Shown here: positions 5,718 through 23,373 of the stretch, piece after piece
Numbering within the stretch: position 1 is the stretch's first letter
How the letters are laid out: each line of letters starts with the position of its first letter
Origin: Patescibacteria group bacterium
GTDB lineage: Bacteria; Patescibacteriota; Dojkabacteria; GCA-002793355
DNA: 64,000 nucleotides
Assembly (NCBI GenBank): GCA_016860985.1
Contig: BOKM01000001.1
Location: forward strand, 789,857 to 853,856
Direction: 5' to 3'
The notes under the pieces: generated by a model
What the model was told of the DNA's origin: nothing
Seen by the model: only the letters and a program-made list of their open reading frames with translations
The model's database searches: none
Translations under genes and position numbers: made by a program

Positions 5718-5745
5718 GTCGGCCAATATTGGAATATGAACAAAT

Positions 5746-6825: not shown

Positions 6826-7030
6826 TCTCGGTAGCAGTTGCAATTGGGCTTCTTTTAACCCTACTCAAAATCCCTTCATTCATGATGCAGCTCATCTTAT
6901 TCTCCCGTAGTGTTGGAGCAGTTCGCCACGTTGGGAGTCAAATTACCAATGTGCTTAGTACTGATTCAAGCGCCTCAGCATCATCAAAGGCTGCCAGGTC
7001 GGTTACAACGCCCAGAAAGACCGTACATCT

Positions 7031-7504
7031 ATGAGAACTACAATTATTCCAGCACAAATAACGACTGTTGAGGACAAGATCGCCGGATCACTTAACATGA
7101 CCCAAATCTTGATCCTCATGTTTCCGGTTCTTTGGACTGCGCTCATCTACATTTTGTTTGCGCCTGCCATGAAACTTGTACCCTACAAACTAGGACTCAT
7201 TGGTGTTGTGATCATGATCTGCTTGATTCTAGTTATTCGAATAAAAGACAAAATAGTAGCTGAGTGGCTTGGAGTGGTACTCAGGTATCAATTCCGTCCG
7301 AAGTACTGGCTTTATAACAAAAACGATACAACCAATCGCATTATTGATATTCCTGACATCCCAGATATTGCCGTTATTAAAAGAAAAACAACAAAGAAAG
7401 CATCTAGTGATCAAAAGACCGAAATAAATATTTCTGACCTTGTTCGTCTCGAGCAATTAATCGACTCAGGCAAGGTAGCCGTTCGTTATCAAATGAAAAA
7501 TTAA
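7031..7504 (+). CDS. VirB3/PrgI-like small T4SS membrane protein
   Basis: Two N-terminal TM helices then a hydrophilic tail; sits immediately upstream of VirB4, as VirB3 does. Confidence 0.4.
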   Translation: MRTTIIPAQITTVEDKIAGSLNMTQILILMFPVLWTALIYILFAPAMKLVPYKLGLIGVVIMICLILVIRIKDKIVAEWLGVVLRYQFRPKYWLYNKNDTTNRIIDIPDIPDIAVIKRKTTKKASSDQKTEINISDLVRLEQLIDSGKVAVRYQMKN

Positions 7505-7508
7505 AACT

Positions 7509-8126
7509 ATGAGTATTTTTAGCAAATCTAAAAAATCTAGTAGCCGTCAACAAATCCAGATTAAAGAAGTCGTGGATAATATCCTCGTTCTGCCTAATAA
7601 CGAATATCGGCAAATCCTTGAAACTTCATCAGTCAATTTTGAGCTCAAGAGTGAAGAAGAACAGGATGTGATTATCGATAGCTTTCAAAACTTCTTAAAC
7701 TCACTTCCGCGTGAAATCCAAATACTCGTTCGTGTAAGGGAAGTCGATATTGATCGCTACGTCGAAGATATTGGCAAAACTAAAGATAAAGAAACTATTC
7801 CTGCCTACAAAAAGCAGATTGAGGGCTATTGCTCATTCGTTAAAAAACTTGTTTCAGGTAACAAAATCCTTTCGAGGCGTTTCTACATTGTCATTCCTTA
7901 CAAACACACTGAGCGTCATCAGGACATGAAACTCATCAAAGAACACTTGAACCTTGAGAAGGACATTATTATTAAAGGTTTGGAGAGAATGCAGATGAAA
8001 GCCCGAAGCATAACAGGTCTTGAAATTCTCAATTTATTTTATGGCTTCTACAACCCGGAAAGTTTGAAAACTCAGGCAATTACAAAGGAAACTGTCGAAG
8101 CCTTACTAAAAAACAACTATGTTTAA
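7509..8126 (+). CDS. VirB4-family ATPase, N-terminal fragment (split gene)
   Basis: VLPNNEYRQILETSSVNFELKSEEEQDVII resembles the N-terminal region of Gram-positive VirB4/TraE homologues; 205 + 599 aa = full VirB4 length. Confidence 0.5.
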   Translation: MSIFSKSKKSSSRQQIQIKEVVDNILVLPNNEYRQILETSSVNFELKSEEEQDVIIDSFQNFLNSLPREIQILVRVREVDIDRYVEDIGKTKDKETIPAYKKQIEGYCSFVKKLVSGNKILSRRFYIVIPYKHTERHQDMKLIKEHLNLEKDIIIKGLERMQMKARSITGLEILNLFYGFYNPESLKTQAITKETVEALLKNNYV

Positions 8127-9918
8127 TTTAAAGAAAAAAATCACTAGCCTCAAACCAATTAAAGCGTGGCAAAAGAAGCGCAAGCTCAAGGCCATGACAA
8201 ATCAGGCCGTTAAAATTGCTTTTGGCACGCAAGATCAAGTGGATTTAATCTCTTACGCAGGACTCAAAGAAGAGTCTAGCTATTTGCAGATAAACGACCG
8301 ATTCGTCAGAACTATGTTTGTCTCGGGATACCCTTATGTGGCTTCAACTGGTTGGCTTAATAACCTGATTAACTTTAATCATGATATTGATATCAGCTAC
8401 CACATCGAACAAGTTGATCCTTTAACCGCCCTGCCCAAACTGATTAGAAAAATAACTGAACTAGAATCCACAAAGCGCACCATGCTCAAAGAAGGCAAGG
8501 TTATCGGGAGCGAGATTACTGATCCTCTTGAATCTGCTATGGAGCTTAAAGACAAAATCCAGCGGGGCATGGAGAAGCTGTTCCAAATCTCAATCTATAT
8601 GACGATTGGTGCGGAATCACTCATTGAGCTAAATAAAGTCACTAAACTTTTAGAAACTGTCATGCAGACGAGACTCTTCTACATCAAGCCTGCCACTTTT
8701 CAGCAGATCGAAGGCTTGCAGTCCATTCTCCCCAGAGCTGAGAATAAATTAGCTCAAAAACGTAACCTTGATAGCTCAAGCGCTGCCCTTACTTTTCCTT
8801 TCGTCTCATCTGAACTCGTCCAAGAGTCAGGTATTCTCTATGGCATCAACAAATCCAATAACTCACTGGTGATCATCGACCGCTACTCCTTAAATAATGC
8901 TAACTCGATTATTTTTGCACAATCTGGATCGGGTAAAAGTTATACCGCCAAGGTCGAAATCCTCCGCCACCTCATGCAAGGCACCAAAGTCATCATTATC
9001 GACCCTGAGCGCGAATACAAACAGTTGGCGGCCAGTGTTGGTGGAACATATATCAAACTCTCAGCCACTTCCAAAGAGAAAATTAATCCGTTTCAATTTT
9101 CCCAGCACTCGGTAACGCAAGAGAATAATTTATCTGAACACATTCAGGATTTAACCGAGCTCATTTCCCTCATGGTTGGCTCACTCACCTCAGAGGAGCG
9201 GGCATCGGTTGATCGCGCTCTGCTTCTCACCTACAAAGAGGCCAAGTTAACGCCTCGCAAAAATGCCAAAAAACAAAAAGAAGTTGAATATCCACTACTT
9301 AAGGATTTCTACAAAAACCTCAAAGCCATGAAGCATAAGGATTTATGTGACAGACTTGAGAGATTTGTAAAAGGGTCGCTATCAACCGTCTTTGATTCTC
9401 AAACAAATATTCAATTGGATAACCGCCTGATTGTCTTTGACATTAAAGACTTAAACGAATCCATTAGATCAATCATGATGATGGTGGTGGCCAACTTCGT
9501 AAATAATGAGGTTAAACAAAATCCCCAGAAGCGAATGCTCGTTATTGATGAGGGATGGATACTTCTCCAAGAGCCAGAGAGTGCGAGGTTTATCTCTGGA
9601 TTAGTTCGTCGTGCCAGAAAATATTATCTGGGTGTCACGATTACCTCCCAACAAGCCAACGACTTTCTTAACCAAGACTACGGCAAGGCCATTGCTAGTC
9701 AGTCGTCTCTCCGAATCCTGATGCGCCAAGATACGACCACCATCAAAAAAGTGGCTGATGAGTTCCATTTATCTGCATATGAACAACACTATCTGCTAAC
9801 CTGTGATCGGGGTGAGGCTTTAATTATTGCTGATCAAAACCATGTTGCAGTGAAAATTGTGGCCTCAGAGCAAGAGCATCCACTTCTGACTACTGATCCC
9901 CGGGAAGTCTATATCTAG
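8119..9918 (+). CDS. virB4: VirB4/TraE-family T4SS ATPase (C-terminal about 600 aa)
   Basis: GYPYVASTGWLNNL motif, Walker A AQSGSGKSY, Walker B VIDEGW, conserved C-terminal region. Confidence 0.8.
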   Translation: MFNLKKKITSLKPIKAWQKKRKLKAMTNQAVKIAFGTQDQVDLISYAGLKEESSYLQINDRFVRTMFVSGYPYVASTGWLNNLINFNHDIDISYHIEQVDPLTALPKLIRKITELESTKRTMLKEGKVIGSEITDPLESAMELKDKIQRGMEKLFQISIYMTIGAESLIELNKVTKLLETVMQTRLFYIKPATFQQIEGLQSILPRAENKLAQKRNLDSSSAALTFPFVSSELVQESGILYGINKSNNSLVIIDRYSLNNANSIIFAQSGSGKSYTAKVEILRHLMQGTKVIIIDPEREYKQLAASVGGTYIKLSATSKEKINPFQFSQHSVTQENNLSEHIQDLTELISLMVGSLTSEERASVDRALLLTYKEAKLTPRKNAKKQKEVEYPLLKDFYKNLKAMKHKDLCDRLERFVKGSLSTVFDSQTNIQLDNRLIVFDIKDLNESIRSIMMMVVANFVNNEVKQNPQKRMLVIDEGWILLQEPESARFISGLVRRARKYYLGVTITSQQANDFLNQDYGKAIASQSSLRILMRQDTTTIKKVADEFHLSAYEQHYLLTCDRGEALIIADQNHVAVKIVASEQEHPLLTTDPREVYI

Positions 9919-9920
9919 CT

Positions 9921-10535
9921 ATGAATCCAAAGCTAGTACTTACACTCTGGTCGTTTCGCAAAGAACTTAAATTCGTCCTCCTCGCATTCTTCACTATCCT
10001 CATGCTCCCTGTCATTGCGGTCATTCTACTGACTCAGGTGGGTATAAATATAATCTCTGACAAACTCGTAGATCAAAATGCCACAACTCAGGCCATTCAG
10101 ATCAAAGATCCAACCACTGGTGAGGTAGTAACGGAAATAAACCCCACCGTTGTCTGGCCAACTAAAGGGATAATTACTCTGGAATTTGCACAATCGAGTA
10201 TGTATCAGGTCTTTCACACTGGCATTGATCTCGCCAGCAAGCTTGATGAACCAGTGAATCCTGCTATGGACGGCACTGTTATTTACGCGGGAGAGATATT
10301 CTGGGGTTATGGCAAGCACGTCATTATTGACCACGGCAATAATGTGATGACCATCTATGCCCACCTAAACAAGATTTATGTCTTTAAAGGCCAAAAGGTG
10401 ACCACCAGCGACGTAATCGGTGGCCAAGGTCAAACTGGCTGGGCAACGGGAGTGCATCTTCACTTTCAGGTGAATGTATATGGCATACCAGTGAATCCAA
10501 GGGTGTTTTTAGATAATAAAACCGCTGCTAAGTAG
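9921..10535 (+). CDS. M23 (LytM-type) metallopeptidase with N-terminal TM; T4SS-associated cell-wall hydrolase candidate
   Basis: HTGIDLA ... IDHG ... TIYAHL ... GVHLHFQ M23 signature; start 3 nt after the VirB4 stop. Confidence 0.75.
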   Translation: MNPKLVLTLWSFRKELKFVLLAFFTILMLPVIAVILLTQVGINIISDKLVDQNATTQAIQIKDPTTGEVVTEINPTVVWPTKGIITLEFAQSSMYQVFHTGIDLASKLDEPVNPAMDGTVIYAGEIFWGYGKHVIIDHGNNVMTIYAHLNKIYVFKGQKVTTSDVIGGQGQTGWATGVHLHFQVNVYGIPVNPRVFLDNKTAAK

Positions 10536-10594
10536 AAGCATTTTATTTCGTAACGTACTATAATGATTAAGTACGAATTAGTATCAAAAGTACC

Positions 10595-10777
10595 ATGGTC
10601 ATGGAAGAACTATTAACATTAAAAGAGGCTGCAAATGTCCTCAAAGTACACCCAAACACCTTGAGGGATTGGGATAAAAAAGGGATACTTAAAGCTGTTC
10701 GGATTGGTATCAAAAAAAGCTTAAGATACCGAAAAGAAGATATAGAAAAATTTATTAGTCACAAAAACGGTAAATAA
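10595..10777 (+). CDS. small HTH DNA-binding protein (excisionase/MerR-like HTH_17)
   Basis: LTLKEAANVLKVHPNTLRDWDKKGILKAVRIG is a typical HTH_17 pattern; first gene of the RM operon. Confidence 0.55.
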   Translation: MVMEELLTLKEAANVLKVHPNTLRDWDKKGILKAVRIGIKKSLRYRKEDIEKFISHKNGK

Positions 10778-10779
10778 CT

Positions 10780-12363
10780 ATGACAAATAACAATCAAAAC
10801 ACTACTAAAGAGCAAGAGCGAGCCGAGCTTCACCGAGCCATTTGGCAAATCGCCAATGACTTACGCGGTAGTGTGGATGGTTGGGATTTCAAATCTTACG
10901 TGTTAGGAATGCTTTTTTATCGTTTCATTAGTGAAAACTTGACTAGCTATATCAATGCCGATGAACGACGATCTGGTAAAAAAGATTTTGATTATGCCAA
11001 ACTAACAGATAAAGAGGCAGAATTTGGAAGAACGGACACGGTAAAAGAAAAAGGCTTCTATATCTTGCCGAGCGAACTGTTTATTAACGTTTGCAAAAAT
11101 GCCAGAAATGACAAAAATCTTAACGAAACTCTATCAAAAGTTTTTACCAACATTGAAAACTCTGCAAAGGGATCAGTAAGTGAAGATGATCTTAAAGGTT
11201 TATTTGCCGATTTGGACGTTAATTCTAGCAAGCTTGGAAACACCGTAGAGCATCGCAATCAAAAACTAGTGAAGATTGTTGAGGCTATTGGTAATCTTCG
11301 CCTTGGTAATTACTCTGACAATACAATCGATGCTTTCGGTGATGCCTATGAGTTCTTAATGACCATGTACGCCTCTAACGCAGGTAAATCTGGAGGAGAA
11401 TTCTATACTCCTCAGGAAGTTAGTGAATTACTCGCGGAGATTACTACTGTTGGCAAGAAAGAAGTTAACAAGGTGTACGACCCTGCCTGTGGATCTGGCT
11501 CGCTCCTTCTAAAATTTGCGAAAGTTTTGGGAAGAGAAAATGTTCGTCAAGGTTTCTTTGGTCAAGAAATTAATCTCACTACCTACAATCTTTGTCGTAT
11601 CAACATGTTTCTACACGACATTAACTACAACAATTTTGACGTAGCTCTTGGCGACACACTTATTGATCCTAAACATTGGGATGATGAGCCATTCGATGCG
11701 ATTGTTTCCAATCCTCCCTATTCGATTAGATGGGAAGGTGATGCTAATCCACTTCTGATCAATGATCCTAGATTCTCACCTGCTGGAGTTTTGGCACCAA
11801 AGAGTAAGGCTGACTTGGCCTTTACAATGCATATGCTTTCGTGGCTTTCTACTAGTGGCACGGCTGCAATAGTCGAATTTCCCGGCGTTCTTTATCGAGG
11901 CGGTGCAGAACAGAAAATTAGAAAGTATTTAATTGACAACAACTATGTGGATACAGTGATTCAACTTCCACCAGATTTATTTTTTGGTACGACTATTGCC
12001 ACCTGTATTATCGTGCTAAAGAAAAGCAAAAAAGATAACAAAATTCTATTCATTGATGCATCGGCCGAGTTTGTTCGTAATGGTAATAAAAATAAATTAA
12101 GTGAAACAAATAGACTCAAAATCTTAGAAGCTTTTACATCTCGATCTGATGCAGAGTATTTCGCCAAGCTAGTTGATAGTAAAGATATCGCAATTAATGA
12201 TTACAACATTGCTGTATCAAGTTATGTAACTGCAGAGGACACTCGTGAAGAAATAAACATCACCGAGCTAAATGCAAAGATTAGCCAAATAGTGTCTAGA
12301 CAATCTGAGTTAAGAAAAGCGATCGATGAAATTGTTGAGGATATTGAAGGTGAAAACACATGA
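10780..12363 (+). CDS. hsdM: Type I restriction-modification N6-adenine DNA methyltransferase subunit HsdM
   Basis: GEFYTPQEV motif, SGS AdoMet motif, NPPY catalytic motif (SNPPYSIRW). Confidence 0.9.
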   Translation: MTNNNQNTTKEQERAELHRAIWQIANDLRGSVDGWDFKSYVLGMLFYRFISENLTSYINADERRSGKKDFDYAKLTDKEAEFGRTDTVKEKGFYILPSELFINVCKNARNDKNLNETLSKVFTNIENSAKGSVSEDDLKGLFADLDVNSSKLGNTVEHRNQKLVKIVEAIGNLRLGNYSDNTIDAFGDAYEFLMTMYASNAGKSGGEFYTPQEVSELLAEITTVGKKEVNKVYDPACGSGSLLLKFAKVLGRENVRQGFFGQEINLTTYNLCRINMFLHDINYNNFDVALGDTLIDPKHWDDEPFDAIVSNPPYSIRWEGDANPLLINDPRFSPAGVLAPKSKADLAFTMHMLSWLSTSGTAAIVEFPGVLYRGGAEQKIRKYLIDNNYVDTVIQLPPDLFFGTTIATCIIVLKKSKKDNKILFIDASAEFVRNGNKNKLSETNRLKILEAFTSRSDAEYFAKLVDSKDIAINDYNIAVSSYVTAEDTREEINITELNAKISQIVSRQSELRKAIDEIVEDIEGENT

Positions 12364-14561
12364 CGGACTTAAAGTTAGACATAAAATTAGAAAATTGTTA
12401 TGGGATTAAGAAGCTTGATCATAAGTTTGATTTTTCAAAATGTCATACCTTTGTAATTTATGCTCCAAACGGTGTGATGAAAACATCCTTTGCAAACACT
12501 TTTAAAGACCTTGCCAGTGCCAAAGTACCCTGTGATCGCATCGACGATTCTCTAACACCGATTTGTGAGGTTTTAGATTGTAGTCAAAATACACAGCCTC
12601 AACCTGAATCAATTTGTGTTATTGAACCATATAACGAGAAAGCATTTGACTCTGAGGGGAAGGTGCTTACACTTCTGGCTAACGAAGAAGTTAGAAAAGA
12701 ATATCTTGGTATCTATTCAGAGTTAGATAAGGAAAAACAGTCATTAATTAAAACTCTTAAAAAAGTTTCAAAAAGTAATAACTGTGAGGCGGAATTAGTT
12801 TCGACTTTCTCAACAAGCAAGGAAAACATTTTTGAAGTTTTACTTAAAATAGTAGATGATTCGCGAAAGTCTACAGAAAAATATGATTTCAAATATAACG
12901 TAGTTTTCGACCCGGCAGGAAAAGTTAAGGATTTTCTAAATGAAAATAAAGAACTTTTTACCCAATACTGTGATAAGTACAATGATTTAATCAGTCATTC
13001 TGACTTTTTCGCCAAAAGTGGCGAAACTGTTTTTGGTACATCGGAGGCAAAAAGTCTTAGTGACTCAGTAAAAGGCAACGAGTTCTTTTCTGCTGGACAC
13101 GGATTAAATATAAAAAAATACGGTAGCATTGGTGACAATAAACGATTCAACGAGATAGTAGACGAAGAAATACAGAAGATATTTAACGATAAAGACCTAA
13201 AAGGTATTTTTGACAAAGTTGAGAAAAAGCTTAATGCAAATCAAACCCTTTCCGACTTCAAAAAATTGATAGAGAAAAATCCGGCACTTGTAGTGAAGCT
13301 TGCAGATTACGAACAGTTTAGGAAAGATGCATGGTTCAGCTTTCTCGGTCAAATTATTAATGAGTTGGATAAATTAGTTGCTTTATACATTAGTAAAAAA
13401 ACAGAGATTGAAGATCTTATTAAAAAGGCGAATGAACAACAGTCGAAGTGGGAGGATGCCATTCAAGAATTCAGCGATCGATTCTTCAATATGCCATTTT
13501 CCCTGAGCATAGAAAATAAATCAGACGCAATTCTGAACACACAAACACCAACAATCTCCTTTAAATTTAAAGGGAAGCCCGTCGACAGAAAGAAGATGAT
13601 TGACGTTTTGAGTCAAGGTGAAAAAAGGGCGTTTTATATATTAAATGTGATTTTTGAAGTTAAGTCACGCCAACTTAGTGGTACAAAAACGCTATTTATT
13701 ATCGATGATATAGCAGATTCATTCGACTACAAGAATAAATACGCTATCGTAGAGTATTTGCATGATATTTCCAGAGATCCAAACTTTTACTCTATAGTGA
13801 TGACCCATAACTTTGATCTGTTTCGGACACTTCAATCCCGAGTGTTACAAAATAATAAATGGACTAATTCGCTCATAGCTGAAAAGGTGGCTGATGAGAT
13901 TCGTTTAGTTGATGCTGGAAGTAAAAATATTACTGATCCTTTCTCTTTGTGGAAAAGGGACGTTCACAGTAACGAAAAATACCTTATTGCTTCGATTCCT
14001 TTTGTTCGCAATTTAATCGAATATAAAGATAGTCAAAATATCAGCTATCGTCTATTAACTCACGCACTTCACCAAAAAATGGCAGACCCCGTAAATAGTA
14101 TTAAAGCAACAGACGATATTTCTATAAGTGACTTGGAGCCTATTTTTTTAAGTGTTTTGTCAATCTCGCCTTTTACATATACAGACACATCTAAAAAAAT
14201 TATTGATATTATCGACAAATTGACTACAGATATTGTCAGTGCAGCAGACTCGGATTCAATAGTACTTGAGGATAAAATAATTCTGGCAATTGGATCTAGA
14301 TTGAAAGCTGAAAAATATATGTGGTCTAAGGTAACAGATCAGTCTGAAATTTCTGGAAATCAAACAGGATTATTATTTCGAAGATTTAAAGATGAATTTG
14401 CTAGTGACCAAAGCTACAAAGACAAAATTCGAATACTTGAAAATGTCAACATTATGACTCCAGAAAACATACACCTGAACTCTTTTATGTACGAGCCGAT
14501 CTTAGATATGTCGATAGACGAGTTAAAGCATTTATATGGTGAGGTCAGTAAATTAAATTAA
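12360..14561 (+). CDS. ABC/SMC-type ATPase with degenerate Walker A and long coiled-coil insert (PrrC/RloC- or OLD/PARIS-like topology), embedded in the Type I RM operon
   Basis: N-terminus LDIKLENCYGIKKLDHKFDFSKCHTFVIYAPNGVMKTS parallels the SbcC/Rad50/OLD N-terminus (GPNGSGKST replaced by APNGVMKTS); about 300 aa coiled-coil; ABC signature-like LSQGEKRAF; Walker B LFIIDDI; H-loop-like THN; about 250-aa C-terminal domain of unknown function; start overlaps the hsdM stop (ATGA). Confidence 0.5.
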   Translation: MTDLKLDIKLENCYGIKKLDHKFDFSKCHTFVIYAPNGVMKTSFANTFKDLASAKVPCDRIDDSLTPICEVLDCSQNTQPQPESICVIEPYNEKAFDSEGKVLTLLANEEVRKEYLGIYSELDKEKQSLIKTLKKVSKSNNCEAELVSTFSTSKENIFEVLLKIVDDSRKSTEKYDFKYNVVFDPAGKVKDFLNENKELFTQYCDKYNDLISHSDFFAKSGETVFGTSEAKSLSDSVKGNEFFSAGHGLNIKKYGSIGDNKRFNEIVDEEIQKIFNDKDLKGIFDKVEKKLNANQTLSDFKKLIEKNPALVVKLADYEQFRKDAWFSFLGQIINELDKLVALYISKKTEIEDLIKKANEQQSKWEDAIQEFSDRFFNMPFSLSIENKSDAILNTQTPTISFKFKGKPVDRKKMIDVLSQGEKRAFYILNVIFEVKSRQLSGTKTLFIIDDIADSFDYKNKYAIVEYLHDISRDPNFYSIVMTHNFDLFRTLQSRVLQNNKWTNSLIAEKVADEIRLVDAGSKNITDPFSLWKRDVHSNEKYLIASIPFVRNLIEYKDSQNISYRLLTHALHQKMADPVNSIKATDDISISDLEPIFLSVLSISPFTYTDTSKKIIDIIDKLTTDIVSAADSDSIVLEDKIILAIGSRLKAEKYMWSKVTDQSEISGNQTGLLFRRFKDEFASDQSYKDKIRILENVNIMTPENIHLNSFMYEPILDMSIDELKHLYGEVSKLN

Positions 14562-14567
14562 GCAAAT

Positions 14568-15764
14568 ATGACTAAGCATCAAAGCAGAATAGACCAATTA
14601 ATCACAGAGCTCTGTCGAAATGGCGTGGAATTTAAAGAGTTAGGTGAATTAGGTTATTTTTATGGAGGTCTAACAGGAAAAAGCAAAGAAGATTTTAGTA
14701 ACGGTACGTCAAAATATGTTTCCTATATGAATGTGTATTCAAACATATCTGTAAATATCGAGATTGAGGACTTTGTAAAACTAAATTCCGATGAAAAACA
14801 GAATGCAATTGAATATGGTGATATTTTATTCACTGGTTCATCTGAAACCCCTGATGAATGTGGAATGTCTTCCGTACTGACGACAAAATTATCAGAACCG
14901 TTATATCTAAACAGTTTTTGTTTTGGTTTTCGACTTAACGATGTATCTTTATTTAATCCTGAATTTCTCAAACATCTTTTTAGAGGCAATTATGTCAGAA
15001 AACAGATTGCTAATACCGCAAGTGGCGTTACACGATTTAATGTATCAAAAAAACGTTTTGCAAAAATAAAAATTCCTGTTCCACCACTTGAAATCCAAGA
15101 TGAAATTGTAAATATTCTTAATAAGTTTACAGAGCTAGAATCAGAGCTAGAATCAGAGCTAGAAGCGAGAGTAGAACAGTATGAGTACTATAGAGAAAAT
15201 CTGCTGGATTATAATGCCAATGTTGAACATAAAACTCTTGGTGATTCTTTTTCTATGTTAGCGGGCCATTTCATTTCGGCGAACAATATATCAAATAATC
15301 AAGATGATATTAATCAATATCCCTGCTTCGGTGGCAACGGATTTCGTGGTTATGTGAGCAAAAAAAGTCATGAAGGGAGATATGTGTTGATTGGTAGGCA
15401 GGGTGCTCTTTGTGGGAATACAAAACGTGTTGATGGCAAATTTTATGCGACTGAGCACGCAATTGTGGTTACTCCTAAAAACGACATAGATATTAATTGG
15501 GCATTTCATATGCTGACATATATGAATCTCAACAAATATGCATCAAAATCAGCTCAGCCAGGTCTCGCTGTTGGAAATCTTGAAAAAGTAATGATTAAAG
15601 TACCAAAATTGAGTGAGCAAAGAAGAATTGCGTCAATACTGGATAAATTTGATTCTCTAGTTAATGACATTACAATCGGCCTACCAGCCGAACTTAATGC
15701 CAGACATCAACAATACGAGTATTATCGAAATAAATTGCTAACATTTAAAGAATATGTCGGATAA
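14568..15764 (+). CDS. hsdS: Type I RM specificity subunit HsdS (two target-recognition domains)
   Basis: Two TRDs separated by central conserved helix (LESELESELEARVEQYEYYRENLL) and C-terminal repeat of the same helix (ARHQQYEYYRNKLL). Confidence 0.85.
   Translation: MTKHQSRIDQLITELCRNGVEFKELGELGYFYGGLTGKSKEDFSNGTSKYVSYMNVYSNISVNIEIEDFVKLNSDEKQNAIEYGDILFTGSSETPDECGMSSVLTTKLSEPLYLNSFCFGFRLNDVSLFNPEFLKHLFRGNYVRKQIANTASGVTRFNVSKKRFAKIKIPVPPLEIQDEIVNILNKFTELESELESELEARVEQYEYYRENLLDYNANVEHKTLGDSFSMLAGHFISANNISNNQDDINQYPCFGGNGFRGYVSKKSHEGRYVLIGRQGALCGNTKRVDGKFYATEHAIVVTPKNDIDINWAFHMLTYMNLNKYASKSAQPGLAVGNLEKVMIKVPKLSEQRRIASILDKFDSLVNDITIGLPAELNARHQQYEYYRNKLLTFKEYVG
15132..15167 (+). repeat. 12-bp tandem repeat (GAGCTAGAATCA x2 plus one imperfect copy) inside the hsdS central conserved region
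   Basis: Direct reading; encodes (ELES)2-ELEA. Confidence 0.8.
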
Positions 15765-18700
15765 CAAACATACATACTACAACATGGTCGCGCAAGGCTC
15801 AGAGAGCACTGTGGTGGCTGAATATACTCGAGATGCAAATATGGTACGCGACGTTGGCTACCAAAGTGAGAATGATCTTGAGCAAACATTCATTAAACAA
15901 CTTCAATCTCAGGCATACGAATACGTTTCTATAAAATCCGAAGCAGATTTAATAGCAAATCTTAGACGACAACTAGAGAAGCTTAATAACTATTCCTTCA
16001 GTGATGGTGAGTGGGAAAAGTTTTTCGTTAGCACACTAGCTAACCCTAATCAAAGCATTGTCGAAAAAACCATCACTATTCAAGAAGATTACATTAAGAA
16101 CCTCACTCGCGATGATGGATCAATCAAGAACATTTATCTCATCAAAAAAGACAATATTCACGATAATTTTTTGCAGGTTATTAATCAGTATGCGACTGAG
16201 GATGGGCAACGCTCTAACCGTTACGATGTCACTGTCTTAGTCAATGGCCTCCCATTGGTTCATATTGAACTAAAACGCCGTGGAGTCGCCATTCAGGAAG
16301 CTTTCAACCAGATAAATAGGTATAACCGTGAGAGTTTTTGGGCTTCATCTGGACTCTTCGAATATGTGCAGATTTTTATCATCTCAAACGGTACTCATAC
16401 CAAGTACTACAGCAACACTACCCGCGCCCAGCATGTAAAAGATTCTAGTGAGGGTTCAGCCAAAGTAGGTAAGCGAACCAGTAACAGCTTTGAATTTACG
16501 AGTTGGTGGGCAGATGCTACTAATCGCCCAATTACCGATCTAATGGACTTTGCCAAAACCTTTTTTGCCAAACACACCATTCTCAATATCCTGACTCGCT
16601 ACTGTGTATTTACCACCGATAAGTTGCTTTTGGTGATGCGCCCATACCAAATTGTGGCTACTGAAAGGATTCTAAATAGGATCGAGGTCAGTACCAATTA
16701 TAAAAAAATGGGAACTGTCGAGGCTGGCGGATATATCTGGCATACCACTGGATCAGGAAAAACACTTACCAGCTTTAAAACCGCCCAGTTAGTCAGCAAG
16801 CTTATTGATATTGAAAAAGTAATCTTTGTGGTAGATCGTAAAGATCTGGACTATCAGACCATGCGTGAGTACGACAAATTTGAGAAAGGGGCGGCTAACA
16901 GCAATACCAGCACCGCGATTCTTACGAAACAACTAAGTGATCCAAATGCTCGAATCATAGTCACTACAATCCAGAAACTTGATCGATTTATTAGTCGCAA
17001 TGGTCAGCATGCTATTTTTGATGGTCATGTAGTGCTCATTTTTGACGAATGTCATCGTTCTCAATTTGGCGATATGCATGCCGCCATAACCAAAGCATTC
17101 AATAATTATCACCTGTTTGGATTTACCGGCACGCCAATCTTTGCCATCAACTCTTCATCAGGAGGTCGTCCCGACTTTAAAACCACAGAGCAAGCGTTTG
17201 GTGAAAAGCTTCACACCTACACCATAGTCGATGCTATTGCAGATAAGAATGTTTTACCGTTTAAAGTTGACTACATTTCTACGGTTCGTGAAGCCGAGGA
17301 TATTGAAGATAAAAAAGTGAATGATATCGACCGCGAAGCTATCCTCTCAGCGCCTGAGCGAATATCAAATATTGTCAAATACATTCGTGAACATTTCGAT
17401 CAAAAAACGAAGAGAAATAGTTACTACAAAATAAAAGATCGTCGCCTGGCAGGATTTAACTCAATATTTGCAGTTGCTTCCATTGATGTCGCTAAGAAAT
17501 ATTATTCGGAGTTTAAGAAGCAATTAGAAGGTCTCCCAAGCGACAAACAACTCAAAGTAGCCACTATTTATAGTTTTGGTGTGAACGATGAAGATCTTGA
17601 TGGAATGATCGATGAGAACTCAGAAGATACTGCAGGCCTTGATGTGAGCTCACGCGATTTTTTGGAGAGCGCAATTTCCGACTACAACAGGATGTTTGGG
17701 ACTTCCTACGATACCTCATCCGACAAGTTCCAAAACTACTACAAAGATGTGAGTGAGCGAGTTAAAAACCGAGAAATAGATATCTTGATTGTGGTAAACA
17801 TGTTTTTAACAGGATTTGATGCAACTACGCTCAATACACTTTGGGTCGATAAGAATTTGAGGCTACATGGTCTTCTTCAAGCTTTCTCCCGCACCAATCG
17901 AATACTTAACAGCGTAAAAACGTTCGGTAATATTGTGTGCTTCCGCAACCTAGAAAAGGCTACCAATGAGTCGATCGCCTTGTTTGGTGATAAAGAAGCC
18001 AGTGGTATCGTGTTATTGAAAGCTTATGACGACTACTATCACGGATATAAGGATGGAGATAAGGAAGTCCGTGGCTATGAAAGCTTAGTTAAGGAATTAC
18101 TAGAGAGATTCCCTGTTGGTGAGCGAATACTCGGAGAACAGAACCAAAAAGATTTCGTAAAGTTATATGGAGCAATTTTGCGAGTCCGTAATATATTGTC
18201 TACCTTTGACGAATTTGCTGGTAACGAAATACTAAGCGATCGCGACGTACAGGATTATCACAGTGCCTATATCGATATTTACAATGAATTCCGTAAGTCT
18301 AAAAAAGAAGAAAAGGAAAATGTTAATGAAGATGTAATTTTTGAAATGGAGCTTATCAAGCAAGTCGATATAAATATCGACTATATTCTTGGATTGATTA
18401 AGAAATATCATGAGGATCACACTAAGAACAAAGAATTATTGCTCGATATTAACAAGGCAATTGATTCAAGCGTTGAGCTTCGTAACAAGAAAGATTTAAT
18501 CAACCAGTTTATTGCCTCATTGGATATTCATTCGGTCGTTGATGATGATTGGCAAAAATTTATTGAAGGCAAGAAGGTTGAAGAACTCGAGTCCATAATT
18601 GAATCAGAAGGATTGGATCACGATGCAACATACACCTTTATCAAAAACGCATTCCGTAATGGAAACGTAACAACAACTGGTACTGCAATTACAAATATTT

Positions 18701-18813
18701 TACCTCCTGTATCCCGCTTTTCCCCGACTGGTGAGCGAACAAAAAAGCGTGAGAGTGTGATTGATAAATTGACTAGATTTTTTGAAAGATTTTTCAACAT
18801 ATCTAGTTCTTAA
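15754..18813 (+). CDS. hsdR: Type I RM restriction subunit HsdR (SF2 helicase/endonuclease)
   Basis: Walker A TGSGKT, DECH box (IFDECHRSQFG), helicase C-terminal motifs, 1019 aa; start overlaps the hsdS end. Confidence 0.9.
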   Translation: MSDNKHTYYNMVAQGSESTVVAEYTRDANMVRDVGYQSENDLEQTFIKQLQSQAYEYVSIKSEADLIANLRRQLEKLNNYSFSDGEWEKFFVSTLANPNQSIVEKTITIQEDYIKNLTRDDGSIKNIYLIKKDNIHDNFLQVINQYATEDGQRSNRYDVTVLVNGLPLVHIELKRRGVAIQEAFNQINRYNRESFWASSGLFEYVQIFIISNGTHTKYYSNTTRAQHVKDSSEGSAKVGKRTSNSFEFTSWWADATNRPITDLMDFAKTFFAKHTILNILTRYCVFTTDKLLLVMRPYQIVATERILNRIEVSTNYKKMGTVEAGGYIWHTTGSGKTLTSFKTAQLVSKLIDIEKVIFVVDRKDLDYQTMREYDKFEKGAANSNTSTAILTKQLSDPNARIIVTTIQKLDRFISRNGQHAIFDGHVVLIFDECHRSQFGDMHAAITKAFNNYHLFGFTGTPIFAINSSSGGRPDFKTTEQAFGEKLHTYTIVDAIADKNVLPFKVDYISTVREAEDIEDKKVNDIDREAILSAPERISNIVKYIREHFDQKTKRNSYYKIKDRRLAGFNSIFAVASIDVAKKYYSEFKKQLEGLPSDKQLKVATIYSFGVNDEDLDGMIDENSEDTAGLDVSSRDFLESAISDYNRMFGTSYDTSSDKFQNYYKDVSERVKNREIDILIVVNMFLTGFDATTLNTLWVDKNLRLHGLLQAFSRTNRILNSVKTFGNIVCFRNLEKATNESIALFGDKEASGIVLLKAYDDYYHGYKDGDKEVRGYESLVKELLERFPVGERILGEQNQKDFVKLYGAILRVRNILSTFDEFAGNEILSDRDVQDYHSAYIDIYNEFRKSKKEEKENVNEDVIFEMELIKQVDINIDYILGLIKKYHEDHTKNKELLLDINKAIDSSVELRNKKDLINQFIASLDIHSVVDDDWQKFIEGKKVEELESIIESEGLDHDATYTFIKNAFRNGNVTTTGTAITNILPPVSRFSPTGERTKKRESVIDKLTRFFERFFNISSS

Positions 18814-18822
18814 GGAGAATAT

Positions 18823-20082
18823 ATGAAAAAAATTAAAGTTAGCATTCAAGATGAAAATACACTCATCCTCCTTGAGGATGCCCAAAAAGGCGATCTCATC
18901 GATCTCAAATCTATTCATGAGGCTGATATTGATAAATCTTCAATTGAGTCACTCATCAAATCTATCAAAACCTCGGAATTTAATGCCCAGCTCGAAGCTG
19001 CGAAGCAAAATATTGCTAAACAGAAGGAGCTAGAGGCTGAGATTAAAACAAAGGATATCGTCACCAAAAAGAATGAAGAATTGGCAAAAAAAGATCAGGA
19101 AATTACTACTCTCAACACCAAAATCGAAGGAATAGCTAAACAAGTTGAATCCGATGCGAAAGTAAAGTTACTTGAGGAAAAACAAGCAATTGAGGAAACC
19201 TATCGACAAAAACTTACTGACAAAGATACAGAAATCCAAGAAATCAAACATCAGAAAGAGTTAAGCGAGCAAATATTGCAGGATAAACTCAAGGCAAGCG
19301 AGACATCACTTGTGTCTTTAAAAGAAATGCGATCCCGCATGAGCACCAAAATGATTGGAGAATCTCTTGAGGTTCATTGTGAAAATGAATTTAATAAACT
19401 CCGCCCGCTAGCTTTCCCAAGGGCTCAATTTGGTAAAGATAATGCTGTTTCATCATCTGGTTCAAAAGGTGATTATATTTATCGTGAGTACGACGACGAT
19501 GGCAACGAGATATTGACCATCATGTTTGAGATGAAGAATGAAGATGACTCGACGGCAACCAAGCACAAAAATAAAGACTTTTTTAAGGAACTAGATAAGG
19601 ATCGCCGTGAAAAGAATTGCGAGTATGCGGTTTTGGTGAGTTTACTGGAGAAAGACAACGAGTATTACGATGATATCGTCACCGTCTCTGACTATCCTTT
19701 GATGTACGCAATTCGCCCTCAACACTTTATTACGATTATCGGCTTTTTGCGCCAAGGGAATCTAAAATCACAGGAGTTGCAGAGAAAAATTCAAATTCTC
19801 AAGAATCAAAACATTGATGTAACCAACTTTGAGGCCAACATGAACGCTTTTAAAGATGCGTTCTCAAGAAATTATAACCTTGCGTCAGACCAATTTAGTA
19901 AAGCCATCGAAGAAATTGATAAAACAATTGATCACCTGAATAAGGTAAAAGAAAACTTACTTAAATCTGATAATAATTTGAGATTAGCCAATAACAAAGC
20001 GTCAGAACTTACAGTTAAAAGATTGACAGCGAATAGCCCTAGTGTGGCAAAGGCTTTTGAGGAAAGTGATAAACAACAATAA
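18823..20082 (+). CDS. coiled-coil protein with C-terminal PD-(D/E)xK nuclease-like domain (DUF2130-like)
   Basis: About 170 aa of coiled-coil, then GDYIYREYDDDGNEILTIMFEMKNE, which fits a D...ExK restriction-endonuclease fold. Confidence 0.4.
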   Translation: MKKIKVSIQDENTLILLEDAQKGDLIDLKSIHEADIDKSSIESLIKSIKTSEFNAQLEAAKQNIAKQKELEAEIKTKDIVTKKNEELAKKDQEITTLNTKIEGIAKQVESDAKVKLLEEKQAIEETYRQKLTDKDTEIQEIKHQKELSEQILQDKLKASETSLVSLKEMRSRMSTKMIGESLEVHCENEFNKLRPLAFPRAQFGKDNAVSSSGSKGDYIYREYDDDGNEILTIMFEMKNEDDSTATKHKNKDFFKELDKDRREKNCEYAVLVSLLEKDNEYYDDIVTVSDYPLMYAIRPQHFITIIGFLRQGNLKSQELQRKIQILKNQNIDVTNFEANMNAFKDAFSRNYNLASDQFSKAIEEIDKTIDHLNKVKENLLKSDNNLRLANNKASELTVKRLTANSPSVAKAFEESDKQQ

Positions 20083-20084
20083 AT

Positions 20085-20858
20085 ATGATTCAAAATTCAT
20101 TTAAATCCATTGCAATCAAGATAATCACCGAAGCTGGCAAACCCCTCCATTATCGAGAGATTACTAGGATAGCAACTGAACAGGGATTGCTCAAAACAGA
20201 TGGTAAAACTCCATGGGCAACCATGAACGCTCAGCTTTCAATGGATATTGTTAACAATGGCGAAAATTCTCAATTTTATAGAGCTCAGCCAGGATATTTT
20301 GGCTTACGAGAGCTTGGAGTCACTACTACATCAACGATTAAAAAATCATTAACCTATGTTGTAGCCAAGCATAAAGTAACTGATTCTCTCAATACCAAGC
20401 AAAAAGGTGATATTGCGGAAGCTAGAGTTGCAGAATTGCTCACACTCTACGGTGATGAGGGCTTAAGCTGTTACCGCCCAATTAGTGATGATGAGGGTAT
20501 CGATATTATCGCTAAGCGTCGTGAAAAACTTGAAGTCGCATATATCCAAGTCAAATCCAGTTACGGATATAAAGATCGAGGTTTTGTTTCCTCGGTTAGA
20601 GAAAAGCAAATTGTCAACAAAGAACGTATGATTTTAGTTTTTGTTTATTTTGACCTCTCAGAAGGCGATTTATTTGACCAAGTATTTTGTATCCCCGCCC
20701 CAGACTTCTTGCAACTGACTGCAAATGAAGATAAAAAGCCCGGGGAGCGTGTCTTCACTGTTGGGCTACGTAACCCTGATAAATCTAAATATGCTGAGTT
20801 TATGATCGAGAAGCGAGAGCTTGCGAATCGAATTATTGAAATTATGGATAAACTGTAA
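20085..20858 (+). CDS. HARE-HTH domain fused to Mrr-like PD-(D/E)xK restriction-endonuclease catalytic domain
   Basis: N-terminus SIAIKIITEAGKPLHYREITRIATEQGLLKTDGKTPWATMNAQLSMDI matches HARE-HTH; C-terminus DDEGIDIIAKR ... AYIQVKS matches the Mrr_cat GDGGIDG ... QCK motifs. Confidence 0.6.
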   Translation: MIQNSFKSIAIKIITEAGKPLHYREITRIATEQGLLKTDGKTPWATMNAQLSMDIVNNGENSQFYRAQPGYFGLRELGVTTTSTIKKSLTYVVAKHKVTDSLNTKQKGDIAEARVAELLTLYGDEGLSCYRPISDDEGIDIIAKRREKLEVAYIQVKSSYGYKDRGFVSSVREKQIVNKERMILVFVYFDLSEGDLFDQVFCIPAPDFLQLTANEDKKPGERVFTVGLRNPDKSKYAEFMIEKRELANRIIEIMDKL

Positions 20859-20860
20859 AT

Positions 20861-21694
20861 ATGAAATTATTAATAATTGGCGCTACTTCATATATCGGAT
20901 CACGCCTAGTTTTCGATCTACAAGACGAAAATGGTGTTGTGGGCACATACCATTCAAACAATACAATTTCACCAAATTTTATCCATGTAGATATTAGGGA
21001 CAGGCAATCTATTGATAAATTGGTCGCTGACGTTAATCCAGAGGTGGTTGTGCATCTAGCAAACTACTCAAGCTCCAGGCAAATAAAAGGCAATGAGGTA
21101 GATTTTCCAAAACTAAATCTTGAAGCAACCATCAATATTGTTGAAGTGCTAAATAAATATGAGAAACCCTTAATATTCTTTTCTTCTATGGCTGCTACTA
21201 CAAAGCAGGATCTTTATGGAGAACTCAAAGCAAAATCTGAGGAAATCGTCAAAACGGTAAAAAAGGGATTTGCGATTGTCCGCCCATCTGCGGTGATCGG
21301 GCTTAGTCCGGTACAATCACATAACAAAATCACAGACAAAATCCTCTCCGTTATAAACGGCCAAACCCAGGAATTTGATAATTCATGGATATTACAGCCA
21401 ACCTACATCGGACACCTATCCCAGGTGATTGAACAGATCGTTTTAAAGGGAATCTGGAATGAAGAATTTAATATATTTACGGACTACCCAGTGACACAAT
21501 ATCAGATCGCAACTGATATTCTTCAGAAATTTGATCTGAAAGCCAACCCCATTGATACTGGAAGAGTTGTTCCTTTGGCTAAGATTGATGACCAAAAGAT
21601 GAAGCTATTTAAACTTTCGCCGGCGTCGTATAAAGAAATTATCGATCGGATAGTATCTGAACTTAAAAATCCATTACTATTCCAGATTAACTAA
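20861..21694 (+). CDS. NAD(P)-dependent SDR-family epimerase/reductase (RmlD-like)
   Basis: Rossmann IIGATSYIGSRL and catalytic YGELK (YxxxK). Confidence 0.6.
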   Translation: MKLLIIGATSYIGSRLVFDLQDENGVVGTYHSNNTISPNFIHVDIRDRQSIDKLVADVNPEVVVHLANYSSSRQIKGNEVDFPKLNLEATINIVEVLNKYEKPLIFFSSMAATTKQDLYGELKAKSEEIVKTVKKGFAIVRPSAVIGLSPVQSHNKITDKILSVINGQTQEFDNSWILQPTYIGHLSQVIEQIVLKGIWNEEFNIFTDYPVTQYQIATDILQKFDLKANPIDTGRVVPLAKIDDQKMKLFKLSPASYKEIIDRIVSELKNPLLFQIN

Positions 21695-21714
21695 GAAAAT
21701 TCTATAATCAAACT

Positions 21715-21918
21715 ATGGCACCGAATAAAATTGGCAAAAAACTAAAAGACGCACGAAAGAAGCTTGGCCTCAAGCAGTCTGATGTGGCTGAAAAAGCAGA
21801 TATCAGTGTCAATTATTATGCTCGCATTGAGCGTAATGAAGAAAATCCTACCTTAGAAACCTTGGAACGTGTATTGAAGGCACTGAAACTTAAATCCTCG
21901 GATGTACTCTCGTTTTAA
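21715..21918 (+). CDS. XRE-family (Cro/CI-type) HTH transcriptional regulator
   Basis: LKQSDVAEKADISVNYYARIERNEENPTLETLERVLKAL. Confidence 0.75.
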   Translation: MAPNKIGKKLKDARKKLGLKQSDVAEKADISVNYYARIERNEENPTLETLERVLKALKLKSSDVLSF

Positions 21919-22157
21919 TCCTTCTTAAGCTTGATCGGATCAATTTTCCCGGATTGTTCATCTTCTACAATTTTGTGAGCGGCCATGTGAGCCAAGGCAG
22001 CTTTTTCCTCAAGATGTTTGATTGCATCTTCTCTAGTGCATGGCAAGTTCTGAGTTTTCAGGAATCGAATGGTTGTCTCGATATCTGCCTCACTAATTTG
22101 ATAACCTGAATTCTGTGTCATATGGTCGAAGTATAGCATTTTATATGTATCTCCCAA
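21915..22157 (-). CDS. hypothetical 80-aa protein, last gene of the minus-strand PLD module
   Basis: Start overlaps the PLD-gene stop by 17 nt. Confidence 0.3.
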   Translation of the reverse strand: MGDTYKMLYFDHMTQNSGYQISEADIETTIRFLKTQNLPCTREDAIKHLEEKAALAHMAAHKIVEDEQSGKIDPIKLKKD

Positions 22158-22587
22158 AATTCAAAAAATTAAACATATCTACGGCGAAGCCGCCGCCATC
22201 CAGGCGGCGCATAATTTCCCTGCTTTTTACTTGTGACAGGATATTCAAACTGCCTTCCCAAAGTATCTTTCGGTCAATTATTGCCAGTTTTCGGTGATGG
22301 TTGCCGACACAAAGAAAAACTTGAATTCCCAGGGCTTCTAGAGCCTCTATTTCGCTCTCGGATTGGACTTCGTAGCCGTCACTGTGATCATTTGGATCGC
22401 GAGTGATGATATAGACTTTAATTCCCTTGGAGTAGGCTCGCCTTAGACTTGGCCAGAGCATTTTCATTCGGCTTGAGGTGATAAATGGACTTTCGATGAT
22501 TATTTCTTCTGTAGCTTGGTCTAGATCCCTCAAGAAGGCTTTATAAAACGACTTTTCATCATGGAGTGCGGAGCTATAGTTATTCAT
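22141..22587 (-). CDS. single-HKD phospholipase-D-family nuclease (Nuc-like)
   Basis: HKD motif GNHHRKLAIIDRKILWEGSLNI (HxK(x)4D ... GSxN); 148 aa like dimeric Nuc endonucleases. Confidence 0.7.
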   Translation of the reverse strand: MNNYSSALHDEKSFYKAFLRDLDQATEEIIIESPFITSSRMKMLWPSLRRAYSKGIKVYIITRDPNDHSDGYEVQSESEIEALEALGIQVFLCVGNHHRKLAIIDRKILWEGSLNILSQVKSREIMRRLDGGGFAVDMFNFLNFGRYI

Positions 22588-23359
22588 GGCTCACCTCCAT
22601 ATTATCAATAAATACGATCTGACCATCTACCTCTTTGATCCCGAGTTCATCCAGTTTATAATACGTCCTTATAACACTGTCGAATAAGGGTTCCACCTGT
22701 GAGACAGTGAGCTCGTATTTTGCGTACCCCGAATTCTTGCCTTGTTTAATGTCATGGTAAAGCTGACCCAAACAAGTCGAAAGTTTTCCACTGTTTGAGG
22801 CTGGTCCAATAACTAGTACCAATGGCGCATTTGTTTCAATAAACTCATCTTTTTCGTACCCTAGTGGACCCACAGCAGCTTTAGGGTCTGGGTATCCGTC
22901 GATTATGTATCTATATGCAACTTGAACTTGCGAATCGCGTAACTTTGTTGCAAACGAACTAAGTTCGGAGGTAACATCACGAACCATATTAATAGCGACC
23001 GAAAATTTTACTGGAAAGGTTTCCTGGTACTCTTTCATTATTCGCCAAATAGCATCGAGATATGCCTCGTTATGATTATTAAGCATTCTATTGTTTTGAA
23101 TATCTTCGGCATTCACGCAGAACAGCAACTCGTATGGGGTGTTGATATTTTTTACAATTTCGGGCTTCACACTTGGATTGAACCCAGGCAAAACTCGTTG
23201 TGCGTGGGGGTCGTAAAGAAATTTGCCACCAATTTCGAGATACAGAGTGCCTCCTTTAAACTTCTCTAAACGTTTAGTTAAAGCCTCTTGCTGTAGCATT
23301 AGGTATTTCTGGTTGTCAAAACCAAGTTCTTTGTGTTCGATTATTTCCGTTGAGTTCAT
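22580..23359 (-). CDS. hypothetical 259-aa protein, first gene of the PLD module
   Basis: ORF with stop overlapping the PLD start; Rx4H (RMLNNH) HEPN-like motif present but not diagnostic. Confidence 0.35.
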   Translation of the reverse strand: MNSTEIIEHKELGFDNQKYLMLQQEALTKRLEKFKGGTLYLEIGGKFLYDPHAQRVLPGFNPSVKPEIVKNINTPYELLFCVNAEDIQNNRMLNNHNEAYLDAIWRIMKEYQETFPVKFSVAINMVRDVTSELSSFATKLRDSQVQVAYRYIIDGYPDPKAAVGPLGYEKDEFIETNAPLVLVIGPASNSGKLSTCLGQLYHDIKQGKNSGYAKYELTVSQVEPLFDSVIRTYYKLDELGIKEVDGQIVFIDNMEVSHE

Positions 23360-23373
23360 CTCACAATCATACT

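Follow-up and report, generated by a model that had tools for sequence, protein, structure and literature searches.

Organization of the locus

We analysed a 64,000-nucleotide (nt) stretch of a Dojkabacteria genome (Patescibacteria; GenBank assembly GCA_016860985.1, contig BOKM01000001.1, positions 789,857–853,856), hereafter the window. At 21915–23359 it carries three minus-strand open reading frames (ORFs), for a 259-amino-acid (aa) protein, a phospholipase D (PLD)-family nuclease and a small protein, which an initial annotation had proposed as a single module for defence or toxicity. Here we describe this locus as one end of an integrative element that is mobilized by a large serine recombinase (LSR), carries genes of a type IV secretion system (T4SS) and of antiviral defence, and has inserted into a chromosomal gene.

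The predicted set of ORFs was borne out, at 22580–23359 (259 aa), 22141–22587 (148 aa) and 21915–22157 (80 aa, with a TTG start). The first two overlap by 8 nt, as proposed. The overlap of 17 nt between the second and the third holds for the ORFs as read, but for the third gene the ATG at 22139 is the most likely start codon: gene callers choose it, and homologues begin with M(K)(V/M)LYF. The gene then encodes 74 aa and follows the PLD gene after a 1-nt gap. The three genes are indeed convergent with the plus-strand restriction–modification (RM) genes, and the stop codon of the third shares 4 nt (21915–21918) with that of a gene for an XRE-type regulator. The three ORFs are real, yet they do not form a single evolutionary unit.

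The 259-aa ORF is a junction of host gene and element

The 259-aa protein had been described as matching nothing recognizable. It is a chimera, in which residues 1–217 are the N-terminal part of a DUF1846/UPF0371 protein and the last 42 codons encode the C-terminus of an LSR. Residues 13–216 align to the Pfam family DUF1846 (PF08903; E = 7e-54, profile positions 2–204 of 333). Against the NCBIfam model of full-length DUF1846 the ORF scores 178 bits, below the cut-off of 631, and is not a full-length member; such proteins measure about 350 aa in Patescibacteria and about 490 aa in Firmicutes. An intact orthologue of 357 aa (P0001) is 99% identical to the first 217 residues, which make up 84% of the query. 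The HEPN-like Rx4H motif noted earlier in this protein did not hold up: Pfam and NCBIfam gave zero HEPN family matches, and the homologous part is all DUF1846.

Six contigs encoding P0001 share the gene order efp, epmA, DUF1846, VCA0040-like, FKBP, NUDIX and gyrA and carry no PLD gene. We aligned six near-isogenic contigs with an empty site (L001–L006; L numbers denote the contigs and loci used for comparison) to the window by blastn. They are 95–98% identical to it and all alignments stop at 22709; beyond the matching point, the sequence of all six has no counterpart anywhere in the window. The whole region 1–22714 is missing from L001 and L002. The other DUF1846 loci checked likewise have no PLD gene nearby. 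Adjacency of the two genes was seen only in three contigs (50–200 kb, 0.2–1 Mb and >1 Mb) with identical 259-aa and PLD proteins, and on account of this identity the three are probably one strain (the other two places are not shown as similar). The 259-aa ORF is a chromosomal gene with a synteny unrelated to PLD and without PLD co-occurrence elsewhere, and the boundary of a mobile element, at 22709–22714, cuts through it. The proposed grouping of three genes is thereby undone.

Both insertion junctions share a 6-nt core

All related elements cease aligning to the window at 22714. The core sequence GAGCTC is common to attB, attL and attR, the host site and the two junctions. The three sites read GCAAAATAC-GAGCTC-TTTCCCATCTGGAACC (attB), GCAAAATAC-GAGCTC-ACTGTCTCACAGGTGGAACC (attL) and CCATTTGGT-GAGCTC-TTTCCCATC (attR). 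A palindrome, GTGAGCTCAC, lies within the reconstructed attP.

The left junction was read on the 204.8-kb public contig L061, where the window coordinate equals the L061 coordinate minus 9912. About 4.5 kb before the window start, the LSR continues in frame into the DUF1846 C-terminus that the 259-aa ORF lacks. The genes past this junction ORF (VCA0040-like, FKBP, NUDIX and gyrA) follow in an order identical to that of the empty-site loci. The two DUF1846 halves flank the element reciprocally, each in frame and sharing one core. The element is about 27.26 kb long, with window positions 1–22714 as its in-window part. An empty site in close relatives and a short core shared by attL, attR and attB identify the region as the attL end of an LSR-mobilized integrative element of ~27.3 kb, inserted in a chromosomal DUF1846 gene.

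The DUF1846 insertion is one instance among many. The same terminus occurs beside at least nine distinct left flanks, counted over 13 metagenome contigs that match it exactly over 26 nt together with L010, L011 and the window. So many flanks for one terminus indicate a mobile element with loose target choice.

One further insertion (L080, 36–100, minus strand) has a host flank whose end, GGTTCGAGTCCTCTCGGGG, looks like the T-arm and acceptor of a tRNA. ARAGORN calls no tRNA or tmRNA there, and we rejected this assignment.

Integration exchanges the last 42 residues of the recombinase

The 699-aa ORF at the left junction consists of the first 561 recombinase codons followed in frame by the DUF1846 C-terminus (138 residues). 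The stretch IRISSLKQ in its N-terminal part is, by our own reading, the catalytic-serine motif. On the opposite side of the element, the displaced recombinase tail stops on the start codon of the PLD gene (ATGA overlap). As the reading frame is kept in each of the two junction ORFs, the recombinase gene must continue through attP for another 42 codons, to 603 aa in all. attP sits in the 3' end of the recombinase gene, and integration splits this gene, exchanging only the last 42 residues; all recognized recombinase domains are retained after integration.

The tail is under purifying selection, with ratios of nonsynonymous to synonymous substitution of 0.10–0.15 in comparison with L012–L014. 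L063 retains a decayed recombinase remnant that runs directly into the tail, and the protein P0348 spans the crossover point gap-free, with 58% identity over 69 aa. A profile-free search with the tail against 1.8 billion representative proteins returned 24 short ORFs (37–91 aa) with differing N-termini, most of them bearing the tail at or near the C-terminus; the same search gave one marginal match of 1,409 aa (E = 3.1e-4, 37% identity). Insertion at many different sites would produce such a tail behind varied N-termini. At the junction, the consensus reads [G/C/S]-E-[L/P], corresponding to xGTGAGCYC. The tail may also be an independent micro-gene of 43 codons that starts at the invariant GTG, but this reading is not needed, since its frame is continuous with that of the recombinase.

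Two related loci depart from this pattern. In L009, the tail ORF (112–114 region) is interrupted in frame by a TAG six codons short of its end (DNM*VSHE), perhaps because the displaced fragment is decaying in an integrated copy. L014 encodes a 512-aa serine recombinase of a different family (7298–8925), whose gene extends 30 nt into the conserved terminus and is not in frame with the tail, and it holds a second tail-like stretch at 3912–4040. This arrangement may represent nested or hybrid elements.

A minimal PLD nuclease with a small partner

The PLD protein was correctly recognized in the initial annotation as a Nuc-like minimal enzyme with a single HKD motif. Pfam PLDc_2 (2.6e-13) spans residues 19–116, and the catalytic motif HxK(x)4D(x)6GSxN is present as HRKLAIIDRKILWEGSLN. 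Residues H98, K100, D105, G112, S113 and N115 are invariant in 27 homologues, and the HKD motif is intact in all 32 loci inspected. An AlphaFold2 model (predicted local distance difference test score (pLDDT) 74.7) has the NucT/Zucchini/Nuc fold; its best Foldseek matches are 6EHI, 4GGK and 1BYR (E = 1e-8 to 1e-7, template modelling score 0.6–0.7). No N-terminal signal or membrane segment is visible, and the protein is presumably cytoplasmic. We class it as a new, divergent member of the Nuc/NucT/Zucchini subgroup.

About 3,900 homologues were found at E ≤ 1e-3. The best 120 are 71–97% identical to the PLD protein, an unusual degree of conservation. Plasmid, phage and IMG/VR collections held no relatives, and so no link to known plasmids or phages emerged. 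The PADLOC matches of the protein are confined to PLD domains, namely those of MkoC, MkoB and DrmC (3e-6 to 5e-15). Among the neighbouring genes, PADLOC gave no match to DrmA, DrmB or MkoA; its only hits were to PDC-S46, a control-protein-like XRE protein and the PLD domain.

The 74-aa protein has 86 homologues, none with a Pfam domain, and belongs to no family in Pfam, NCBIfam, PADLOC or PHROGs. Its AlphaFold2 model (pLDDT 81.7) contains two helices, at residues 17–29 and 36–63, and gave no fold match below E = 3. A homologue detectable by tblastn lies downstream of the PLD gene in 20 related loci. Among the 32 loci inspected, a co-directional small ORF follows the PLD gene in 20 and is absent from 12, and some of the latter also have no XRE gene. 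Since these 12 keep an intact HKD motif, the nuclease seems to be tolerated by the cell without its partner, and an obligate toxin–antitoxin pair is unlikely.

The 67-aa XRE regulator matches the HTH_VI, capH and RM control-protein models of PADLOC. It lies beside the PLD gene in 39 loci, in convergent or divergent orientation. A scan of 21400–25300 for promoters and terminators gave counts no higher than those in shuffled sequence.

Element architecture and cargo slot

A terminal cassette of 1,014 bp is the only block at the right end that the window shares with related elements (L009–L016, L034, L055 and L068–L076; 66–93% nucleotide identity). Homology to these relatives resumes at 10519–10522, at the 3' end of an M23 peptidase gene, and none was found between 10522 and 21701. 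These limits define the cassette and an 11.2-kb cargo slot. The PLD gene and the 74-aa gene are the constant backbone end of the mobile element beside variable defence cargo, not cargo themselves.

Here the slot contains a type I RM system that comprises HsdM, an embedded 733-aa PDC-S46-like protein (E = 1.5e-235), HsdS and HsdR. Elsewhere it is occupied by Gabija (GajA, 3.7e-201; GajB, 2e-106), a CBASS cyclase with a 2TM effector, a ThsB-like TIR protein or PDC-S39. Of the initial interpretation, a Nuc-like nuclease, a conserved small partner and a defence-rich neighbourhood are retained; what falls away is the unit built around the 259-aa protein.

The same order recurs in 21 related loci: PLD gene, usually a small ORF, an opposite-strand XRE gene, variable cargo, M23, VirB4, TraC-like and pilin genes. 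These loci, not all of them complete, include L009, L010, L012, L013, L017, L018, L020, L022–L025, L027, L028, L032, L033, L037–L039 and L053. The whole T4SS cluster (coupling protein, Replic_Relax, pilins, VirB4 and M23) falls within the recombinase-bounded insertion, which covers window 1–22714 plus L061 5358–9971 and is missing from relatives of 96–98% identity. A coupling protein with TrwB/TraG-type domains is encoded, with the recombinase, to the left of the window start. The element encloses the T4SS and coupling-protein genes expected of an integrative and conjugative element (ICE), with VirB4, TrbC/T4SS pilins, a TraC-like protein, an M23 peptidase and the coupling protein. On this gene content, it may be capable of conjugative transfer.

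A distant subfamily (L044–L053, on Saccharibacteria-type contigs) keeps the synteny, with a serine recombinase that belongs to another family, a divergent XRE gene, a longer PLD protein of 206–243 aa and a 120–135-aa protein with a (T/R)(E/D)DAI motif, followed by defence-like cargo. An LSR gene lies beside XRE and PLD in L047, L052 and L053.

One Saccharibacteria metagenome-assembled genome (MAG), CAYQPT01, contains five PLD cassettes (L047, L048, L049, L051 and L052), with XRE detected in L047, L048, L049 and L052. Cargo was inspected for L047, L048 and L052 and differs among them; immediately upstream of two of the cassettes lies a serine recombinase. L048 and L050, the latter from another MAG, both adjoin a host gene of ~510 codons, which we take from its N-terminal sequence to encode RNase Y.

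On the host side, gaps of 14–16 nt separate the genes of a tight operon that consists, in this lineage, of efp, epmA (EF-P beta-lysine ligase) and DUF1846. A functional link between efp–epmA and DUF1846 was considered and dropped, as distant DUF1846 loci (L065–L067) do not have that synteny. The chromosomal efp–epmA operon now reads into the attL junction.

Further along the window, a 512-aa minus-strand ORF (27183–28721) lies between a SHOCT-domain response regulator and a histidine kinase; neither it nor its relatives have a Pfam family on record. GC content peaks at 0.48 and 0.51 at 36001–37000 and 42001–43000, over a background of about 0.40, with strong skew at 36–37 kb. A tRNA scan of the whole window found none.

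Table 1 Features of the element and its host flank. Positions refer to the window unless another contig is named.
Feature	Position	Strand	Basis
Element backbone in the window: PIG-L, Replic_Relax, receiver, DUF2958, TrbC/T4SS pilins, TraC-like, VirB4, M23	1..10522	+	Pfam
Variable cargo slot: HTH_17, type I RM, DUF2130, HARE-HTH/PD-(D/E)XK, SDR/epimerase	10523..21700	+	
Conserved terminal cassette, 1,014 bp (XRE, 74 aa, PLD, recombinase tail, core)	21701..22714	.	Shared block
XRE/HTH_3 regulator, 67 aa	21715..21918	+	HTH_3 3.8e-16; convergent with the 74-aa gene, 4-nt stop overlap
Orphan partner, 74 aa, two helices, TREDAI motif (80 aa if TTG 22157)	21915..22139	-	Homologues, AlphaFold2
Single-HKD PLD-family nuclease (Nuc/NucT/Zucchini type), 148 aa	22141..22587	-	PLDc_2, motif, fold
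Last 42 LSR codons and stop, fused to DUF1846 fragment	22580..22708	-	In-frame junctions, substitution ratio, L063
attL crossover core GAGCTC, outer edge of the element	22709..22714	.	blastn ends, att comparison
DUF1846/UPF0371 5' fragment, codons 1–215 (216–217 in core)	22715..23359	-	PF08903; identity to P0001
Host epmA/genX	23374-24435	-	Pfam, NCBIfam; same order in empty-site loci
Host efp	24452-25015	-	Pfam, NCBIfam; same order in empty-site loci
Junction ORF, 699 aa: Resolvase, Recombinase, Zn-ribbon, DUF1846	L061 4941-7040 (left of window)	-	Domain search

Role of the nuclease cassette

We consider it likely that the locus is the end of an LSR-mobilized element with T4SS and defence genes, in which PLD serves as a backbone nuclease for exclusion or defence. 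In the excised circle, a 50-aa ORF, the recombinase gene, the PLD gene and the 74-aa gene would form one co-directional, overlapping unit, met head-on by the XRE gene. The recombinase promoter would then drive the PLD and 74-aa genes. In the integrated state, efp, epmA and the DUF1846 fragment lie directly upstream of these two genes, with gaps of only 14–16 nt, and both are probably read from this host operon.

PLD is predicted to be an active dimeric phosphodiesterase of the Nuc/NucT type; members of that subgroup are metal-independent nucleases in which a homodimer forms a single active site. It may help the element to exclude or degrade competing incoming DNA, a role suggested by its structural kinship with NucT and Zucchini and by its apparent non-toxicity. 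The cell might tolerate it through a preference for single-stranded or foreign DNA; NucT and Zucchini have both been reported to be active on single-stranded nucleic acid. The 74-aa protein would modulate the nuclease, and the XRE protein would govern gene expression at this end of the element.

Several observations weigh against this interpretation. One scan of metagenome contigs for attP or a circular junction, with exact or degenerate patterns, gave no match. No canonical relaxase was found in the element, the only candidate being Replic_Relax (PF13814). The model does not explain L014, where the tail is preceded, in a different reading frame, by a recombinase from another family. The PLD homologues at L019, L031, L056 and L057 have neither XRE nor partner gene nearby, so the cassette is not universal for the PLD family. 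The best PLD homologues lie on contigs labelled as several Patescibacteria classes, but taxonomic labels of MAGs are unreliable and claims of transfer between classes are correspondingly soft. Finally, the substrate of PLD, its contact with the 74-aa protein and the control by XRE are all points that we infer.

It is unlikely, in our estimate, that PLD and the 74-aa protein form an addiction pair of toxin and antitoxin, in which the helical protein neutralizes the nuclease and cells that lose the element are killed. The two genes are co-directional and tightly coupled (a 1-nt gap here, a 4-nt ATGA overlap in L012–L014), an orphan small partner accompanies PLD in 20 of the 32 loci inspected, and the pair lies at the element end beside the integrase, where stabilization modules are typically found. 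However, the remaining 12 loci have an intact HKD motif and no co-directional small ORF, and some of them no XRE gene. The nuclease gene comes first, an order in which toxin precedes antitoxin and which is less common in type II systems, and PADLOC gave no match to a toxin–antitoxin family.

A role in the DNA transactions of the element seems less probable still. Here the 74-aa protein would be a directionality factor, as is known for small proteins encoded beside serine integrase genes, and/or PLD a substitute for the relaxase in nicking or processing. Consistent with this, the circular form would place both genes in a unit with the recombinase gene, and the synteny of recombinase, XRE and PLD recurs in the distant subfamily. 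PLD enzymes act through a covalent phosphohistidine intermediate. A relaxase is undetectable in most Patescibacteria T4SS clusters (PMC12102498). By contrast, PLD lacks a DNA-binding domain, for several PLD cassettes the nearest 10 kb contain no T4SS genes, and the partner is absent from 12 of the 32 loci. Replic_Relax, encoded near the coupling-protein gene with PIG-L and a 95-aa ORF between them, is a more conventional candidate.

A bolder form of this idea, which we regard as quite improbable, is that recombinase, PLD and the 74-aa protein together make up an integration-state switch and DNA-processing module of relaxase-poor Patescibacteria T4SS elements. Integration would change the C-terminus of the recombinase and place the PLD and 74-aa genes under a host promoter, in this case that of the efp operon. 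The directionality factor or nickase for excision and transfer would be PLD, with its covalent phosphohistidine chemistry, and/or the 74-aa protein. If true, this would be a bacterial serine-recombinase counterpart of the 'suicidal' integrases of archaea and the first PLD-family enzyme in conjugative DNA processing.

A dedicated three-gene defence or toxin operon, with a novel HEPN-like 259-aa protein, could draw on the stop/start overlaps and the adjacent RM system, but it is already refuted by the empty-site comparison, with a truncated DUF1846 joined to a recombinase tail, the element boundary inside the ORF, DUF1846 and PLD as neighbours in this strain only, and zero HEPN matches. A chimera of assembly or binning, in which the PLD region would not truly abut DUF1846, might be suspected in a metagenome-derived genome with many related contigs that break at the cassette, but it is excluded by identical junction proteins in three contigs, the longest >1 Mb, and by reciprocal in-frame DUF1846 halves with a shared core, which are not expected of a chimera.

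Discussion

The PLD protein resembles Nuc (pKM101/Salmonella, 1BYR), NucT (Helicobacter pylori, 6EHI) and Zucchini/MitoPLD (4GGJ) in its size of ~150 aa, its one HKD motif and its fold. Nuc, too, is encoded on a conjugative element with a T4SS. The PLD protein of the window differs from all three in being only 19–24% identical to them, in showing neither an N-terminal signal nor a membrane segment and in having a dedicated 74-aa partner, an XRE neighbour and a linkage to a serine recombinase. With DrmC of DISARM and MkoB/MkoC of Mokosh it shares a PLD nuclease domain in a defence context. Unlike in those systems, DrmA, DrmB, DrmMI and the MkoA helicase are not present here, and PLD belongs to the element backbone.

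Elements such as Tn5397 (TndX), Tn4451 (TnpX) and the SCCmec-type islands have an LSR at one end, insert at many sites with only a short core in common, disrupt genes and carry transfer genes and cargo. The element of the window is likewise LSR-ended, uses many sites, disrupts a gene and carries both transfer genes and cargo. It is set apart by its Patescibacteria host, its relaxase-poor T4SS, an attP within the recombinase coding sequence, and an end cassette of PLD, 74-aa and XRE genes beside a slot for defence cargo. The XRE protein, a small HTH_3 protein at the integrase end, is comparable to the repressors of ICEs and prophages and to RM controllers. ImmR of ICEBs1 is such an integrase-proximal XRE repressor, and similar modules occur in ICEs and prophages. 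In contrast to these, the XRE gene of the window is convergent with the nuclease operon, with overlapping 3' ends, and no anti-repressor protease was found.

Archaeal viruses and plasmids have SSV-type 'suicidal' integrases, whose genes contain the att site; these enzymes are of the tyrosine type and the arrangement is said to be exclusive to archaea (PMC8371274). Here, too, integration partitions the integrase gene. The archaeal enzymes are split into non-functional halves, whereas the bacterial serine recombinase swaps only its last 42 residues.

Our literature searches turned up nothing directly relevant to three subjects: the serine recombinases of Patescibacteria or Saccharibacteria, the pairing of any serine recombinase with PLD, and a serine integrase gene that contains attP. 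The sole mention of PLD concerned a lysis cassette of phage WO. The end cassette of PLD, 74-aa and XRE genes is undescribed in this literature. A 2025 survey of T4SSs in Patescibacteria reported relaxases in few genomes, regarded these systems as largely non-mobile or co-opted and suggested co-option for non-conjugative roles; a search of its text by terms gave no mention of recombinases, nucleases or defence genes near virB4 (PMC12102498).

The locus illustrates a common trap in defence mining that relies on gene neighbourhood only: the 'unknown protein' beside a nuclease is a broken host gene at the junction of an element. It also provides an attP inside a bacterial serine-recombinase gene, an arrangement that had been called exclusive to archaeal tyrosine integrases (PMC8371274). 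Comparison of full and empty sites places a Patescibacteria T4SS cluster on a discrete, recombinase-bounded insertion that is found at many sites, and makes T4SS mobility directly testable at this locus, as against the co-option suggested in the survey (PMC12102498). The cassette of about 1 kb flanks a hotspot of defence cargo and could be used as a marker in searches for new defence genes of ultra-small bacteria.

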